From Escherichia coli (lineage in GTDB: Bacteria > Pseudomonadota > Gammaproteobacteria > Enterobacterales > Enterobacteriaceae), in assembly GCF_003019035.1 (NCBI RefSeq), contig NZ_CP027447.1: 64,000 bases of DNA; one strand, 5' to 3'. Positions 27,356 through 33,832 of this stretch are shown in pieces. A program made the position numbers and the translations under genes. A model generated the notes under the pieces. The model had not been told where the DNA came from. It saw nothing but the letters and a program-made list of their open reading frames with translations, and ran no database searches. Positions within the stretch are counted from its first letter, which is position 1. The number at the start of each line of letters is the position of its first letter.

Positions 27356-29125
27356 TCAGTTGCCGTTAACAATGCTGATAACGCTGCTGCGGGCCGGCGT
27401 GGTCAGCGTGGCCATGACTTCATCCAGTGCGGCTTCCGGTACGCCGTCCGGGTACTGTGCCGTTAACTGGCGGTAATGTTCCGGCGTCCAGGTAAGGCCG
27501 TCGGCGCTGAACTTATCGCGCAGGGCTTTCGCGGCCTCCACATGAGTCATGGGACGTTGTTCAGTGCGCGGTCTGCGTACATCAGAGGCCTGACCGCGCT
27601 TCGGTATACAGGCCGGAAGTGTGGCGTCATCAATATGTTTATACGGGTCAAGCCGCCCGCCGAACGGCAGCGCCTTCGCCTTGCGTGCGGCAGCTGCATC
27701 TGCGGCGTTGTCTGTACCGGTGACCAGCGCTTCGGTTTCTTTTGCCGCCGTCTGTGCCGGTGTTTCCGGCAGGGCTTTGTAACTTTCGCCAAATACCGCC
27801 GCGCCTTCAGCAAAGCCAAACTCGTTCTTTCTGACCTCTTCGACCAGGAAGAACGTCTCGTGGCCGTCCTCACCGGTCAGAACCACCTGTGCCACATCGC
27901 TGCGCCATGGGTTACGGGTAATCATCAGTTTTTCACCAACCAGTACGCCCGGTACCGTTGATACGTCAAATTCAGTGCCCCGGAACGAGACACGAAGTTT
28001 TGGCGTGACTTTGCGGAGTTCTGGTGTCGTCACAGCCAGTTCACGGCATACCTCAACGGAAGGCGCTTTTTTCAGCTGCTCAGCAGTAATCTTCAGCCAG
28101 ATATCCGTGCGGGTTTTACCGTGGCGGCTGTGAACAGCTGTTGCGTTAAAGTGGCTACGCCATTTCGCGGCCAGCGCGTTGAGTTCTTCCAGACTGTGAA
28201 CCGGCCGGAACTTCAGACCCGGCTCCAGCTTGCGTTCGATAATGTCACGCGCCTTTTCCACCTGTCCGGTGGCGCGGGCGTTATGCGGCTTGTGCGCTAT
28301 CAGGTCGATGCCCAGTGAGCGGCACATGTTTTTCGTCATACCCGCGGTGTTTGCCGAGCCGGGGTCGAGATAGAGTATTTTCGGCACGCCGTGCAGCACG
28401 TCTGCGCCGCCACGCTCCTGCATGGCGTTGATAAGCACAGAACACAGGTTCTCACCGGATTCCGCACCCGTCACATACTCAACGTAAATCCAGCCGCTGG
28501 CATGGTCGGTAATCTCGTAACTCCACACGCGGTCACTGGCGATACGGGCAAGGTTAGCGGGCTTGTTCTTGTAGAACTTCGCGCTGTCCATCACCTGCAG
28601 CCCTTTGTGTCCATTGCTCAGGTAGTAAAGCGTGCAGAGAGAGGCATCAATCTGCCAGACATGATTGGGATGCAGACTGGCCACTTCGGTATGCGGCGCA
28701 GGGGCATCCAGTTGTTCCGGGTGCAGGCCATAGTTACGCAGGGCACGGCTGATAGCATCTTCGGACAACGGGAAAAACTCACCGGTGGTTTCATCTGTTC
28801 TGCCTGCGGAGATAAAGCCGTTAGCCCGCAGGGTTTCCACTGCATCTGCGATGGAATAGAGACGCTTACCGTTCTTGCGGGTGGCCTCACGTAGTGTGGC
28901 AGATATCAGCGCGGCTTCGTCGCGGGTCAGGGCGCTGCGCCCGGCATCGGCGCGTTTTTTGCGTTTATCAGTCACAGAGACCTCCTTCAGCCTGCGCAGC
29001 AGAGTGGCGCGGGACATGCCAAGTTCAGCACAGGCGGCGTCATATATTGCACCACGTTTACCATGCCCCGCGTCACGTGCCGCGCGGGCGACATAAACCA
29101 GTCGTTCAGTCAGGGCAGCATTCAT
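27356..29125 (-). CDS. DDE transposase (Mu A-like)
   Basis: 589 aa; N-terminal HTH-like region, integrase-core motifs (HVWQIDAS, YLDPGSANT). Confidence 0.8.
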   Translation of the reverse strand: MNAALTERLVYVARAARDAGHGKRGAIYDAACAELGMSRATLLRRLKEVSVTDKRKKRADAGRSALTRDEAALISATLREATRKNGKRLYSIADAVETLRANGFISAGRTDETTGEFFPLSEDAISRALRNYGLHPEQLDAPAPHTEVASLHPNHVWQIDASLCTLYYLSNGHKGLQVMDSAKFYKNKPANLARIASDRVWSYEITDHASGWIYVEYVTGAESGENLCSVLINAMQERGGADVLHGVPKILYLDPGSANTAGMTKNMCRSLGIDLIAHKPHNARATGQVEKARDIIERKLEPGLKFRPVHSLEELNALAAKWRSHFNATAVHSRHGKTRTDIWLKITAEQLKKAPSVEVCRELAVTTPELRKVTPKLRVSFRGTEFDVSTVPGVLVGEKLMITRNPWRSDVAQVVLTGEDGHETFFLVEEVRKNEFGFAEGAAVFGESYKALPETPAQTAAKETEALVTGTDNAADAAAARKAKALPFGGRLDPYKHIDDATLPACIPKRGQASDVRRPRTEQRPMTHVEAAKALRDKFSADGLTWTPEHYRQLTAQYPDGVPEAALDEVMATLTTPARSSVISIVNGN

Positions 29126-30053: not shown

Positions 30054-30425
30054 TTACAAACGACTACCTGAAATAACTCGTTGGTTGATTTCGTTAATAC
30101 GATCCTGTGCACGCGCCATCTCGTGACTGTGAGCCATGGCGATCTGTAGTAACTGGATTCCCGGTGCGAAACGTCCGTTCTCTAATTTCATGGCCAGTCC
30201 CTCTTCAATAAGGGTATTAAGTGCTCGATTGATATTCGCCGGGGACTCCCCCAGGGCTGATGCCAGTTCACCGTTAGAAACACCGTTCAGAGCATGACCG
30301 CGTAGAGCTTTGAGTACACGTAGGATGCGGCTCCCGGAACTGGAAATATTTACTTTACTCATGTCACATTTCCATTTTTGCAATATGTGATAACCTGTTG
30401 CATATGTGGAAAATTTATGCCGCAT
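30054..30425 (-). CDS. Putative winged-helix DNA-binding protein
   Basis: SRILRVLKALRGHALNGVSNGELASALGESPANINRALNTLIEEGL resembles MarR/IclR-type wHTH; start uncertain (alternative Met at 30362). Confidence 0.45.
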   Translation of the reverse strand: MRHKFSTYATGYHILQKWKCDMSKVNISSSGSRILRVLKALRGHALNGVSNGELASALGESPANINRALNTLIEEGLAMKLENGRFAPGIQLLQIAMAHSHEMARAQDRINEINQRVISGSRL

Positions 30426-30603
30426 TTGACGTGGGTTTTAATCCCAGTTTTACGGCAATTTCATGGGCTTTGCCGTAACGAGCTTTGGTCTGTCCATTGA
30501 GAACACGATAGACCTCATTGCGGCTGTAGCCGTGTTCTTCGGCCCAGCGGGTAAACGTGATACCACGCTGACGGAAGAGATTTTTAACTTGTTCGGAAGT
30601 CAT
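30415..30603 (-). CDS. Small HTH DNA-binding protein in the Ner position (first gene of the early operon)
   Basis: 62 aa with AGGAG RBS; divergent from the repressor gene. Confidence 0.55.
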   Translation of the reverse strand: MTSEQVKNLFRQRGITFTRWAEEHGYSRNEVYRVLNGQTKARYGKAHEIAVKLGLKPTSNAA

Positions 30604-30689
30604 TGTTGTCTCCTTTGTTGATGCAATGATGTTTGTTTTATATGTGATAGATTATGTGAACTATTGTTCTCATTGTCAATGAGGTTTAT
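30604..30689. promoter_or_regulatory. Divergent early/repressor promoter-operator region
   Basis: 86 bp AT-rich spacer between divergent starts; three direct copies of TATGTGA (30641, 30653, 30687). Confidence 0.55.
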
Positions 30690-31115
30690 GTGAATTTTGA
30701 TTCTCTTTGCGCGTCGCGGTTCAAAGCTGAGCGTTCGCGGTTATCACTCAAGCAGGCTGAAGTAGCAGCCCTTTGTGGCGTTTCAAGAGAAATGTGGGGG
30801 AAATATGAACGAGGGGTTGCTGTTCCCGGAGGTGAGTTACTTGCAGCCTTTGCAAGAATTGGGGCCAATGTACAGTTCATTCTTACCGGGGAGTCATCAG
30901 GTATAACTTTATCACGTGATGAAATGGAGTTACTGCAGCACTACCGGCAAGCACCGTTACAGGTCAAAGGTTCAGTTTTGTCGGCTTTGACTACTGGCTC
31001 CTCCAGAGAACGGGCGGAACAGGTTATTCATGGAGATGTTCTGGGGAATGTTATCAAAGGTAACGTAACCATAGGAACAGGTGGAATAATGAACAAAAAT
31101 ACCAAGAGAAGATGA
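30690..31115 (+). CDS. Prophage repressor (XRE-family HTH)
   Basis: GTG start with GAGG RBS; HTH LSLKQAEVAALCGVSREMWGKYERG; divergent from the transposition operon. Confidence 0.75.
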   Translation: MNFDSLCASRFKAERSRLSLKQAEVAALCGVSREMWGKYERGVAVPGGELLAAFARIGANVQFILTGESSGITLSRDEMELLQHYRQAPLQVKGSVLSALTTGSSRERAEQVIHGDVLGNVIKGNVTIGTGGIMNKNTKRR

Positions 31116-32098
31116 GTAAAGAGAAGCAAACAGTTAACGGGGATGTGGGTAACGTTGTCAGCGGTGATGTTACCATTCATAACTATTCTGCTGACATACT
31201 TCCTTCTGCCCAGCAACCAATTTCGTTGCTGCAAAAACGCGATTTACACAGATTGATGGATGAATTGGTTGATCTGGGGGAAAGTAAGCGCGAGCTATGG
31301 ATGACGATCCACACGAAACTTAATACCAAAACAGTTAATGAAATGACTGCGGCTGATTATCATGGTGCGGTTGAGATCCTTCAGAGATATGCACAACAGA
31401 TCCAGAATATGAAGGACTGTAATCTTCTGGTCAGCAAAATAATGGCGCTTACTGACCCTGGGTATCGTCTTGACCGTGACAGATACTGTCTGAAGCATTT
31501 CGGTACAACCCATCTTAAAGGCCTGGACAAAGAGCAGTTGCAGGCTGTGTTTGGTTATTTTGATGATCTGCTGAATATTCGTGATGAGAGTAAAACTCTA
31601 TCACCTCCATCGGAAAGCGGTGCAAAATCAGTCGCAACTGTACCAACCAGAAGCCGGAAGCCTCATGTAGTAGTGTTGGGGGGAGCGTTAGTTCTTGTAG
31701 CAATATTTTTCGTGGGAATGATTGTGTTCGCTGGTAAATGGGGAAATGCTAAAGCAGTAGCTTCTACTGAAACCAGCGTTTTTAACATTAAAACCAACGA
31801 CAAAATAATAGAAGATTCCATCCCCGCACTGCGCAGCATGTTTCCAGGATTAAATAAGTACTCAGATGATTTCCATTCGGTTTCAAGCTACAAGCAAAAA
31901 ACGGGCTGGCATACCCTTAAATTTACTGTATCAGCAAAGGCATCCGTCCCCGAAAATTATAGTGTTAAGGGCAAGGTTTGTTACATTAACATAAACCCTG
32001 ATGGTAGTTATGCTCGGGTTTTGACTGCTCCATGTCGTTCACTGCTACTTGATCAGCAAAGCACTCCTGACAGTAAGTACCGTTTTATTCTTAAATAG
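31112..32098 (+). CDS. Hypothetical single-pass membrane protein (moron), translationally coupled to the repressor
   Basis: ATGA overlap with the repressor stop; markedly AT-rich; one TM segment (VVVLGGALVLVAIFFVGMIVFAG) between N- and C-terminal domains. Confidence 0.6.
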   Translation: MSKEKQTVNGDVGNVVSGDVTIHNYSADILPSAQQPISLLQKRDLHRLMDELVDLGESKRELWMTIHTKLNTKTVNEMTAADYHGAVEILQRYAQQIQNMKDCNLLVSKIMALTDPGYRLDRDRYCLKHFGTTHLKGLDKEQLQAVFGYFDDLLNIRDESKTLSPPSESGAKSVATVPTRSRKPHVVVLGGALVLVAIFFVGMIVFAGKWGNAKAVASTETSVFNIKTNDKIIEDSIPALRSMFPGLNKYSDDFHSVSSYKQKTGWHTLKFTVSAKASVPENYSVKGKVCYININPDGSYARVLTAPCRSLLLDQQSTPDSKYRFILK

Positions 32099-32410
32099 AA
32101 AATAACAGCTGAATTACCATGGGAGCAGAAAAAAGACAAAGGCGATATCATGCTGCGTTCTAAAATTTTAATGTAAAAGGTGATGAACATGGCAGGGATT
32201 CAGGTTATCGCAGGAAGTTTTCCTAAAGGGTGGGCAAGCATGGGGTTCGGTACCATCGTGTTTGCCACCAATCCATGGAACGATGGGTAATGTCTGCATT
32301 TTCATAATCTGTAAGCCTTTTACAATTATTAAAAATATGGCAGGCTAGTCTGGTCTCGCGAGACTGACTGAACCTCGGTCGGCTCACAGTGCATTCCTGT
32401 GGGACGATGG

Positions 32411-32447
32411 CCAGCCCGGCTTTCGGGTGCCGGGCTGGTCGTTCTTT
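32411..32447 (+). terminator. Putative rho-independent terminator
   Basis: Perfect 10 bp stem ccagcccggc/gccgggctgg with 8 nt loop, followed by tcgttctttc. Confidence 0.5.
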
Positions 32448-32494
32448 CATGATGCGGCAGGGATAGTGGGATTTCTGTTAATGTGGTTTAGGGA

Positions 32495-32710
32495 TTATCC
32501 GGGGTGATTGTCTGCCTTTATCTGGTCCAGGGCATAAGTGATCCCTTCAGCAAAAACAGAAGTATCGAACTGCTTTTGTATTTCCTGAAAATGAACAGTG
32601 GCACGACAGATACTCAGTTCTCCGCGATGTAACCGGATAATATCTTCCAGAACATTGTTCACTGCTTCGGCACGGCGCTGATGTTCTGTTAACGTTAATC
32701 GGGGATTCAT
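32495..32710 (-). CDS. Hypothetical small protein (71 aa)
   Basis: Strong AGGAG RBS 7 nt before ATG. Confidence 0.5.
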   Translation of the reverse strand: MNPRLTLTEHQRRAEAVNNVLEDIIRLHRGELSICRATVHFQEIQKQFDTSVFAEGITYALDQIKADNHPG

Positions 32711-33113
32711 GATGCACTCCTTAAATGATGATTTTTATGTACTCACCGGCAAAATATTCTGCCGATTACTGAACACGCATCCGGCACCTCAGGTTTTGAT
32801 TTATTCTGGTTTTTTCGATATCCCGGACCAGGTTGATCACGACCAGAAAAAGTGCCGGTATTTTATTGATACGCTGATATGGCTTCGGGATAACAGCTAT
32901 ATTCGTTACTCTCAGTTGCTGGCTGTGGGAGCGGCTGATGTCGTCCTCACGGAAAAAACGCTCTGTCTGCTCAATGCCATGCCGACCTTTCTGCAGCCCC
33001 GGCCCGTACCATTTAAAGAGTTGCTTCTGGATGCAGTAAAAACCGGCGAAAATGCAGTCATCGCTGAATGCGTATCCCGGATTATGCGTTACGTGTTTAA
33101 TGAACGTAAGTGA
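32709..33113 (+). CDS. Hypothetical protein (134 aa), uncertain
   Basis: Only long ORF in the 380 bp gap; weak RBS; start overlaps the divergent 71 aa gene and 3' end overlaps the convergent NTPase gene. Confidence 0.3.
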   Translation: MMHSLNDDFYVLTGKIFCRLLNTHPAPQVLIYSGFFDIPDQVDHDQKKCRYFIDTLIWLRDNSYIRYSQLLAVGAADVVLTEKTLCLLNAMPTFLQPRPVPFKELLLDAVKTGENAVIAECVSRIMRYVFNERK

Positions 33114-33832
33114 GGTTTATCTGCTGTCTGCATAATCCCGATAGCCAGTGCGAGGGGAAGTAATTCCGGGGAAACTCTTTCAAACAGCGATGCCCATTCT
33201 CCTCTCGCCATCACTCTGTCCAGCCCGCCCCCCAGCTGCATTTCAGCAATCTTCCTGATTTCCCGGAACAACGCCGCTTTGATCTCTTCATGCTCAGCTT
33301 TATTTTCCGGTGTCAGAATGTATTCGTCGAAGAACCGGGGAGGCTGGTTAACGGGGATTGTGTTTACCGGGATGTGTTCCTGTTTCCCGTACTTCGGGGA
33401 CGAACAACATTCTGTTGGCTGACCGGTGAGTTTACGTAACTCCTTCATGAGCAGCTCCTGATCGTAAACTGTCATCAGTGCCGCAATGGTGGCATGCAGT
33501 GCATCGGGCAGTATCCAGGGTTGCCGGCCCGTGGGGCATATAACATCCAGTAGCTCATTCGTCCGACAGATACGCTCCTCTCCGTATGACAACAGGCCCT
33601 GTCCCGTGTATTCCTCCAGCCTGATCACTGTGCCAGCCCGTGGCTTCTGCCAGGTCGTCAGATCATCGCCACTCATACGGCGCTCATTCTCCACGTCAGC
33701 AGCATCGACAATGACGCTGTTTCCGAGTTCCTGTTTCACCACTTCCTCTATCCGCGCCAGTACGTAACTTTTACCGCTGCCCACAGGACCGGACACGGTG
33801 ACAGTGATGACCGGATTCAGTGTATGTGTCAT
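33089..33832 (-). CDS. P-loop NTPase/kinase-like protein (247 aa)
   Basis: N-terminal Walker A VSGPVGSGKSY and probable Walker B VIVDAAD; strong AGGAG RBS. Confidence 0.55.
   Translation of the reverse strand: MTHTLNPVITVTVSGPVGSGKSYVLARIEEVVKQELGNSVIVDAADVENERRMSGDDLTTWQKPRAGTVIRLEEYTGQGLLSYGEERICRTNELLDVICPTGRQPWILPDALHATIAALMTVYDQELLMKELRKLTGQPTECCSSPKYGKQEHIPVNTIPVNQPPRFFDEYILTPENKAEHEEIKAALFREIRKIAEMQLGGGLDRVMARGEWASLFERVSPELLPLALAIGIMQTADKPHLRSLNT

Follow-up and report, generated by a model that had tools for sequence, protein, structure and literature searches.

What does a membrane protein do when its gene overlaps the end of a prophage repressor gene? The question is raised by a stretch of 64,000 nucleotides of Escherichia coli DNA (contig NZ_CP027447.1 of assembly GCF_003019035.1), hereafter called the window. 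It contains a prophage in which an open reading frame (ORF) of 328 amino acids (31112..32098, plus strand; phrog_10002) is translationally coupled through an ATGA overlap to the gene of a 141 amino acid repressor (30690..31115, plus strand). An earlier note on this DNA had described the ORF as an AT-rich moron that encodes a membrane protein, possibly one for superinfection exclusion or abortive infection. Here we describe a short motif that is found both at the N-terminus of the membrane protein (the head) and at the C-terminus of the repressor (the tail). Matched terminal motifs on the products of adjacent genes are a known arrangement, and in this case they are carried by a phage repressor and membrane proteins. 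The reading we favour, with a probability of roughly 40%, is that the ORF encodes a membrane-anchored partner or modulator of the prophage repressor. The gene structure, the signals for co-translation, the domain architecture, the motif match with its conservation and co-occurrence, and a gene fusion described below are seen directly in the sequences; from these we infer the physical pairing of head and tail, the direction of control and the biological output.

A matched motif at the ends of two adjacent proteins

The repressor tail RAEQVIHGDVLGNVIKGNVTI (amino acids 108-128; 31011..31073, plus strand) is matched by the ORF head KEKQTVNGDVGNVVSGDVTI (amino acids 3-22; 31118..31177, plus strand), with KQTVNGDVGNVVSGDVTI in the head mirroring EQVIHGDVLGNVIKGNVTI in the tail. 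The alignment of the two scores 55, with a z of 7.8 against shuffles. Among 1712 comparisons in the 64-kb window the pair is the top non-self match, at a score of 54-55 where the 99th percentile is 29 and the next-best match reaches 42; on these scores, a third copy of the motif elsewhere in the prophage was rejected. The aligned motif core is 17-24 amino acids long and G10, G13-G18, V20 and I22 of the head are invariant. In composition the motif is enriched in N (by a factor of 4.1), G (2.2) and V (1.6) and depleted of L (0.09), P (0.04) and K (0.43), while Q and I are not enriched. It comes in two flavours, type A GDVGNVVSGDVTI and type B NRVAGRDF, and these are always matched within a locus. 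The P2-like phage 520873 has the same arrangement with the other motif (tail NISGGNNRIAGRDYNE, head NSNGSNNRVAGRDFHE).

The match extends far beyond the window. When loci from Mu-like and P2-like prophages were collected via the membrane protein, the upstream helix-turn-helix (HTH) protein had a matching tail in about 100 of 104. The pair was significant against composition-preserving shuffles in 8 of 8 divergent lineages (z 4.5-9.9), and cognate pairs had a mean score of 49.9 compared with 27.4 for non-cognate ones, with the summed score of the cognate pairs being reached in just 26 of 100,000 permutations. The same cassette pattern is seen in Escherichia, Salmonella, Yersinia, Serratia, Morganella and in metagenomes. 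The one locus examined from a further subfamily is an exception to the pairing: in L090, a membrane protein with the Flk_N domain described below follows a 90 amino acid non-HTH protein that has no matching tail. Its subfamily (P0034, P0040, P0044, P0071, P0075 and P0131) consists of longer proteins with a head, a CxxC segment, a coiled coil and a transmembrane (TM) anchor.

The association was also approached from the other side, by retrieving repressors through their HTH alone. This gave 58 distinct loci, in 42 of which the repressor has a tail and the locus a partner, while seven have the tail only, nine have neither, and none has a partner without a tail. Two of the seven tail-only loci have a different head-bearing membrane protein downstream. 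In sibling E. coli BcepMu-like prophages that lack the ORF, and also in locus L002, the repressors end without such a tail. The flavour of the tail tracks the partner, not the HTH lineage: P2-like repressors with a window-like HTH have an NRVAGRD tail and a partner with an NRxAGRD head, and in locus L102 the HTH is only 50% identical where the helices and tail are 89-91% identical.

No segments of the two proteins are better conserved than head and tail, which have amino acid identities of 0.80-1.00 and 0.86-0.97, respectively. Their ratio of nonsynonymous to synonymous substitution rates (dN/dS) is at most 0.13, with synonymous sites near saturation, while the linker and TM segment of the membrane protein are only 19-27% identical. 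Both are predicted to be disordered by AlphaFold2 (AF2). Identical residues of head and tail use the same codon in 42% of cases, and the nucleotide identity is 50-68%, so the likeness is maintained at the protein level and a recent duplication or gene conversion as its source is excluded. By the measure of these comparisons, the coupling of the repressor tail to the membrane-protein head is conserved and selected. The match indicates a direct link of the ORF protein to the repressor protein that goes beyond shared transcription.

These observations bear on another explanation, in which the ORF encodes a membrane protein of a common type, for lysogenic conversion or exclusion, that is not linked to the repressor at the level of the proteins, and the motif is either a relic of duplication or serves a third party common to both proteins, such as a protease, a chaperone or a membrane-targeting factor (a common degron or decoy). 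We regard this as distinctly improbable. A relic would decay, yet head and tail are under the strongest constraint and are matched even where the Flk_N domains are only 20-30% identical. Also against this explanation are the two flavours, which always co-occur within a locus, and the absence of the tail from sibling phages that have no partner. A shared third party would still amount to functional coupling, and here it can be added that the C-terminus of the Mu repressor controls the degradation of that repressor by ClpXP. The explanation does draw support from the protein being predicted to be lysogen-expressed and membrane-located, from its C-terminal domain, which belongs to a family of prophage lipoproteins, and from AF2, which predicts no contact between head and tail.

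Coupling and composition of the two genes

The ORF and its ATGA overlap of start and repressor stop are present in the window as the earlier note had described them. This -4 overlap is kept in all close relatives (L091-L104 and L112-L120), the Shine-Dalgarno sequence of the ORF is located in the last codons of the repressor gene, and no terminator was found between the two genes in the window sequence. Together these features make co-expression with the repressor in the lysogen likely, as had been proposed. The extreme C-termini of the repressors are rich in Lys, Arg and Gly. These were considered as a possible degron and set aside, being more simply read as the Shine-Dalgarno sequence of the downstream gene in those codons.

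The ORF is indeed AT-rich: its GC content is 0.429, where the window as a whole has 0.54 and the transposase and lysis genes have 0.54-0.61. However, this is not a property of the ORF alone: it extends to the repressor (0.469) and to the ner-like and IclR-like genes of the early operon (0.47-0.48), and the GC content at third codon positions (GC3) is alike in the repressor (0.394) and the ORF (0.398). Since the repressor and early genes share the low GC content, and repressor and ORF the same GC3, the AT-rich unit is the immunity module. The label of moron consequently does not hold, as the ORF lies within a swapped immunity module, has the GC3 of the repressor, and co-varies with the repressor tail. 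Its GC3 and its position inside the exchanged module rule out an independent insertion of an AT-rich moron.

A gene fusion with a periplasmic domain

The ORF was modelled with AF2 using 18 homologues. In the model, residues 1-30 are disordered, residues 31-160 form an all-helical domain with a predicted local distance difference test score (pLDDT) above 90, and a disordered linker leads to a TM helix at residues 186-208 and an alpha/beta domain at residues 221-328, again with a pLDDT above 90. The architecture that had been read from the sequence (a cytoplasmic domain, one TM helix and an extracytoplasmic domain) is thus borne out by structure prediction. The helical domain (31202..31591, plus strand) is predicted to be cytoplasmic and is a Flk_N domain according to PF27202, the NCBIfam Flk model and matches in AFDB that are named Flk. 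The single TM helix VVVLGGALVLVAIFFVGMIVFAG (31667..31735, plus strand) is homologous to the C-terminal anchor of unfused, tail-anchored relatives. The alpha/beta domain (31772..32095, plus strand) has an invariant pair of cysteines, C290 and C308, and because of this pair and its homology to stand-alone lipoproteins it is probably periplasmic, with the N-terminus of the protein inside and the C-terminus outside.

An exhaustive profile search retrieved two independent families. One consists of tail-anchored Flk_N proteins of about 190-220 amino acids, the other of lipoproteins or signal-anchored proteins of about 130-200 amino acids that align to residues 200-327 of the ORF. Other BcepMu-like prophages have the order repressor, Flk_N protein, lipoprotein (L084, L086, L110), and in the Klebsiella element 'KP12_2' the repressor is followed by the lipoprotein. 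Unfused tail-anchored versions occur even inside the window's own subfamily (P0021, P0022 and P0024), and the TM segment of the window protein (...FFVGMIVFAGKWG) resembles the terminal anchor of unfused proteins (...GLIVGKFWF, followed by the stop). As the periplasmic domain is a separate lipoprotein gene in related prophages, the ORF of the window is a gene fusion, which probably arose through loss of the stop codon of the Flk_N gene and of the signal peptide of the lipoprotein. Proteins of 44-99% identity in Escherichia, Salmonella, Morganella, Yersinia and Serratia have kept the fusion, and both of its halves are under purifying selection. A distant relative of the C-terminal domain, P0068, is fused to two Lipoprotein_Ltp repeats.

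The Flk_N domain and its relatives

Where the earlier note had recognised no motif, the cytoplasmic domain can be assigned to Flk_N of Pfam (PF27202), which has a precomputed match on P0001, the 99% identical cluster representative, and on many relatives. The NCBIfam Flk model (NF007987) matches residues 19-147 of the ORF with an E-value of 3.5e-12 and 46.2 bits, which does not reach the curated cut-off of 353 bits. The family is catalogued (phrog_10002, PF27202), without known function. Other searches with the ORF gave little: a scan of Pfam-A, in a copy that did not include PF27202, gave no match, with P22_AR_N and Lipoprotein_Ltp (PF07553) also absent; PADLOC gave no defence match (best E 0.012, over 40 residues); Pfam, PADLOC and NCBIfam gave no toxin family, and there was no similarity to RexAB; a sequence search of PDB found nothing, and a fold search of PDB reached E 0.09 at best. 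In AFDB50 only uncharacterised proteins named Flk and lipoproteins were found, and many relatives have the database name 'flagella biosynthesis regulator'. There are weak Pfam matches to GemA and ORF6C, with E-values above 1e-3.

In Salmonella and E. coli, Flk (also called Fluke or RflH) is a cytoplasm-facing, membrane-anchored protein that interacted with the cytoplasmic domain of FlhA in a two-hybrid assay. The ORF protein shares with it a homologous Flk_N domain, the orientation and membrane anchor, and a regulatory, protein-binding character. It is conceivable that the ORF protein is a prophage analogue of Flk that acts on the flagellar type III export gate (FlhA) and alters motility or flagellar assembly of the lysogen, for example to exclude flagellotropic phages. 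The match to the NCBIfam model, the database names and the contact of Flk with FlhA are in line with this idea, which we nevertheless consider very unlikely. The match of 46 bits is far below the cut-off, and the ORF has a single Flk_N domain where true Flk-like proteins (P0116, P0119 and P0123) have two or three in tandem. Also, the ORF is prophage-borne and has a periplasmic domain after its TM helix. True Flk has neither a repressor-matched head nor a repressor as neighbour, and the strict linkage to the repressor tail would be left unexplained. The N-terminus of host Flk is rich in G, N and S.

A second, more remote likeness is to the antirepressor Ant of phage P22, a top-scoring member of phrog_245 (E 3.6e-91). 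All 12 tail-anchored relatives that were compared match phrog_245, with E-values of 2.3e-8 to 7e-3. In a comparison with hhalign, the broad family A2 aligns with P22 Ant at E 5.9e-5 and a probability of 65%, placing Flk_N residues ~43-95 on Ant residues 141-189. This lies between and into P22_AR_N, which is residues 14-125 of P22 Ant, and P22_AR_C; the region of remote similarity as a whole is Ant ~140-270. With the C-terminal half of P22 Ant as query, only near-identical Ant proteins were retrieved, and no further family members came from a profile word search with A2. Both Ant and the ORF are genes of immunity regions that are connected with repressors. Unlike the ORF protein, which has no P22_AR_N, is membrane-anchored and is co-translated with a repressor, Ant is soluble, cytoplasmic and separately regulated. 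The prophage Flk_N module and the central part of P22 Ant may be ancestral to Flk or have an ancestor in common with it. In phrog_17822 the N-terminal part (positions 10-88) matches the repressor HTH and the C-terminal part (135-263) matches Flk_N proteins, which hints that HTH and Flk_N-like domains may also be fused in single proteins.

Other partners of the repressor tail

All partners of tail-bearing repressors are membrane proteins with a cytoplasmic N-terminal head, and some of them are not Flk_N proteins. These include proteins with a Zn-ribbon (CxxC...CxxC) and two TM segments, with a coiled coil and two TM segments, and with a helix and two to three TM segments. The partners in L126 and L161, both among the 42 loci with tail and partner, consist of a head, a Zn-ribbon and TM segments only. 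Some cassettes have a second small membrane protein with a head (L110 3910-4293; L089 707-1003). Small head-bearing membrane proteins are also found among the downstream genes of L126, L161 and L141, beside tail-bearing repressors. Judging from these proteins, the head looks like a portable module on several types of membrane protein.

This diversity is relevant for the main alternative interpretation, in which the membrane protein is an effector that the repressor guards. The repressor tail would cap the head and keep the protein inactive, much as the disordered C-terminus of a type II antitoxin does. When the repressor is lost or titrated, through induction, a foreign antirepressor or loss of the prophage, the freed heads would self-associate, and the output could be exclusion, abortive infection, addiction or support of lysis. 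This amounts to the earlier note's idea with a post-translational trigger added, and we see it as a tentative possibility, somewhat on the unlikely side. As in toxin-antitoxin operons, the HTH gene comes first and the stop of the repressor overlaps the start of the next gene, and the C-terminus of the repressor is disordered; this is a resemblance only, since the downstream ORF does not belong to any toxin family that was scanned. In favour of the interpretation, the small membrane partners are diverse, with only a head and TM segment in common, and some cassettes have two of them. It fits the 58 HTH-retrieved loci as well, where the tail occurs without a partner and the partner never without the tail, as expected if a lone partner is harmful. 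A motif shared between termini is what the E. coli abortive-infection system Bab/Agp runs on.

Co-transcription with the repressor is the classical arrangement of exclusion genes, with rexAB of lambda as the textbook case, and Ltp of phage TP-J34 is an exclusion lipoprotein. Like these, the ORF would be a lysogen-expressed membrane protein from a repressor operon, and the only pointers to exclusion come from its periplasmic half, whose family (prophage lipoproteins) has a member fused to Ltp exclusion repeats. On the other hand, the ORF has no homology to RexA or RexB, no match to a PADLOC model and no Ltp repeat, and to our knowledge RexAB has no motif in common with cI. Further points speak against an effector under guard. 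The ORF is not similar to known toxins or defence proteins (PADLOC, Pfam, PDB folds), and Flk_N is helical, soluble and conserved, with regulators (Flk, Ant) and not pore-formers as its relatives. In known pairs with shared motifs, the effector is the protein whose motif is C-terminal, and in this case that would be the repressor. Disrupted alleles of the Flk_N gene are tolerated, which is neither for nor against toxicity.

A proposed membrane-anchored partner of the repressor

In the reading that we favour, the repressor and the ORF form a two-gene immunity cassette. The repressor would provide a 'socket', made of its two helices and the disordered, Gly/Asn/Val-rich C-terminal tail, and the membrane protein a 'plug', formed by the matching motif that precedes the remotely Ant-like Flk_N domain at the cytoplasmic N-terminus. 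Head and tail would pair by homotypic beta-strand association, possibly templated and amyloid-like. Pairing would bring repressor molecules to the inner membrane, and the ORF protein would act as a membrane-tethered modulator, similar to an antirepressor or an anti-sigma factor. The Flk_N domain and, in the lineage of the window, the periplasmic domain may gate the pairing. The periplasmic domain, a lineage-specific addition by fusion, could be a sensor or could have an envelope or exclusion function of its own. The outcome would be an envelope-linked input to the lysis-lysogeny switch of Mu-like and P2-like phages, which classically are not SOS-induced.

The closest precedent for the motif pair is amyloid signalling. 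Known pairs are HET-S/NWD2 in fungi, the Bell/NLR pairs of BASS1-10 in bacteria, and Bab/Agp with BASS11 in E. coli prophages. The bacterial motifs are about 25 amino acids long, rich in G, N, Q, V and I and poor in K, P and L, and the sensor is the protein that has the motif at its N-terminus, the effector the one that has it at its C-terminus. The pairs described here are alike in that a short motif found C-terminally in one protein recurs N-terminally in the product of the adjacent gene, in locus-specific matching, in the enrichment of G, N and V and depletion of L, P and K, in disorder in monomer predictions, and in their occurrence in E. coli prophage regions. They differ in their proteins, which are an HTH repressor and a Flk_N membrane protein and not a sensor of the NLR/TPR type and a Bell/HeLo pore-former, and in the shorter core (17-24 versus about 25 amino acids). 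Should the analogy be valid, the pairs described here would regulate genes instead of killing the cell. A strong version of it would be a prion-like, amyloid pair, where the clustered membrane protein templates the repressor tails into a cross-beta assembly and switches the repressor off irreversibly. We think that this strong version is unlikely. If it is true, temperate phages without SOS-cleavable repressors would have an induction switch that is triggered at the membrane and propagates itself, and amyloid signalling would for the first time be seen wired to a transcription factor instead of a cell-death effector.

The direction of control would be from partner to repressor, for several reasons. 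In the known pairs the bearer of the N-terminal motif is the sensor, and the Flk_N domain resembles Ant. The layout is also that of an anti-sigma factor: those of the RseA/sigma-E type are single-pass proteins with the N-terminus inside and a periplasmic domain, and they are encoded directly after, and coupled to, the transcription factor that they bind, so that both topology and operon layout resemble those of the ORF. Antirepressors that work by sequestration are known, and Qtip and RstC inactivate repressors by sequestering, relocalising or aggregating them. Finally, the module of tail and partner is joined to different HTHs. The ORF has no similarity in sequence or fold to anti-sigma factors, Qtip or RstC, and its target would be a repressor recognised via a matched terminal motif.

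A number of points weigh against this reading. It is unusual for an antirepressor to be produced constitutively from the operon of its target, and a gating signal would be required. The likeness to Ant is remote, with the window family A1 reaching only E 6e-4 and a probability of 28% in hhalign, and the window ORF itself giving no match to phrog_245 at the E 0.01 level. Head and tail are separated by 10-60 nt, so their co-variation is partly explained by linkage, and the co-occurrence of tail and partner in the 58 loci (Fisher p ~1e-6) is not corrected for phylogeny. Truncated or frameshifted alleles of the Flk_N gene are fairly common, as in P0158 (153 amino acids), which has 53 member sequences. 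Phage 520873 (L003 3784-4396) is the only isolated phage in the collection with the gene, and its copy is frameshifted and in pieces. From such alleles it follows that the gene is dispensable for phage growth. In addition, AF2 was run on a fusion of repressor, linker and ORF residues 1-165 with a paired alignment of 29 rows, and in the result tail and head are disordered and there is no contact between head and tail or between domains. This weakens a simple one-to-one hairpin model, and such a prediction is uninformative for templated or oligomeric assemblies.

The immunity module and the surrounding prophage

The gene layout of the window identifies the host element as a BcepMu-like transposable prophage of E. 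coli. A ner/cro-like small HTH gene (30415..30603, minus strand; phrog_925, E 1.3e-32) is divergent from the repressor and opens the early (lytic) operon. Behind it come genes for an IclR-like HTH protein, DUF3102, a DDE transposase (29125..27356) and an ExeA-like transposition ATPase. A holin, an SLT transglycosylase and Mu-type head genes lie further on, on the plus strand. Given this BcepMu-like layout and synteny, the ORF upstream of the membrane protein probably occupies the position of the immunity repressor, as c does in Mu, with the early operon running away in the opposite direction. It consists of an XRE-type HTH (amino acids 1-66), two helices (76-102) and a disordered tail (103-141), and matches phrog_8, phrog_2328 ('transcriptional repressor') and an RstR-like model of NCBIfam. 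It starts with the GTG at 30690, and relatives begin at the same position (M/V-NFDS...). In other strains the RefSeq start is 12 codons further upstream (MRTIVLIVNEVYV...). This longer start is probably wrong, because in the window the ATG at 30654 directly precedes an in-frame TGA at 30657.

The divergent control region (30383..30709, no strand), whose function is assigned from its position, contains operator-like repeats and a promoter. One repeat box, ATATGTGATA, is found at 30383-30392 and 30640-30649 and another, TTATGTGAA, at 30652 and 30686; each is a candidate operator for the repressor. Both groups of boxes contain TATGTGA and are about 250 bp apart, with the ner-like gene between them. 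The TATGTGA boxes would suggest candidate operators, with a spacing that is suited to DNA looping. A near-consensus sigma-70 promoter for the leftward early operon (TTGACA, 17 nucleotides, CATAAT) is located at 30679..30651 on the minus strand.

Similarity to sibling prophages ends at ~30402 on the left and resumes at ~32255, within the first codons of a DNA adenine methylase (dam) gene. By this comparison, the region of ~30400-32255 is a swapped immunity module, consisting of the exchangeable ner-like gene, the putative operators, the repressor and the 328 amino acid ORF. The window keeps a 5' remnant of the methylase gene only, 45 codons long (MKMQTLPIVPWIGGK...; 32168..32305, minus strand), in which the right junction of the module lies; sibling prophages have the full 765-bp gene. 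Downstream, a very stable GC-rich hairpin followed by a U-rich stretch, UCGUUCUUUC (32399..32450, plus strand; folding free energy -36.5 kcal/mol, z -4.2), is a candidate terminator of the operon of repressor and ORF. It was overlooked by a simple terminator scan, is kept in sibling prophages (L105) and may terminate transcription from both sides, that of the repressor operon and that of a leftward gene for 71 amino acids.

The stretch from the ORF to the holin is variable cargo (window 32495-33832; L001 10140-11226; L107 7488-9084). In the window and in ST131-type siblings it contains genes for 71, 134 and 247 amino acids (phrog_4490, 2266 and 3787), while elsewhere there is a fragment of a KAP NTPase gene (strain A24) or a DUF2441 gene (strain 503025). 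E. coli chromosomes match the 1.9-kb region of repressor and ORF at 99% identity. Of 5426 complete E. coli genomes, 127 have the window's type of repressor and immunity. At least 80% of the 1.9-kb stretch is present in 125 genomes, and the sibling prophage with a different immunity region is found in about 500 further genomes.

Implications for lysogeny control

Full-text literature searches found nothing on repressor-linked or prophage Flk_N proteins, or on this pair of head and tail motifs. If head and tail dock, they would form a modular 'plug and socket' that links membrane proteins to the master repressor, in BcepMu-like and P2-like phages at least. Such a link could offer a route to induction, or to a repressor-guarded defence, in phages whose repressors are not known to be SOS-cleavable. 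Signalling through matched terminal motifs, which so far belongs to NLR-type immunity and cell death, would then be extended to the control of lysogeny. There would also be a first lead to the function of Flk_N, a domain common to the poorly understood flagellar brake Flk and, remotely, to P22 Ant.

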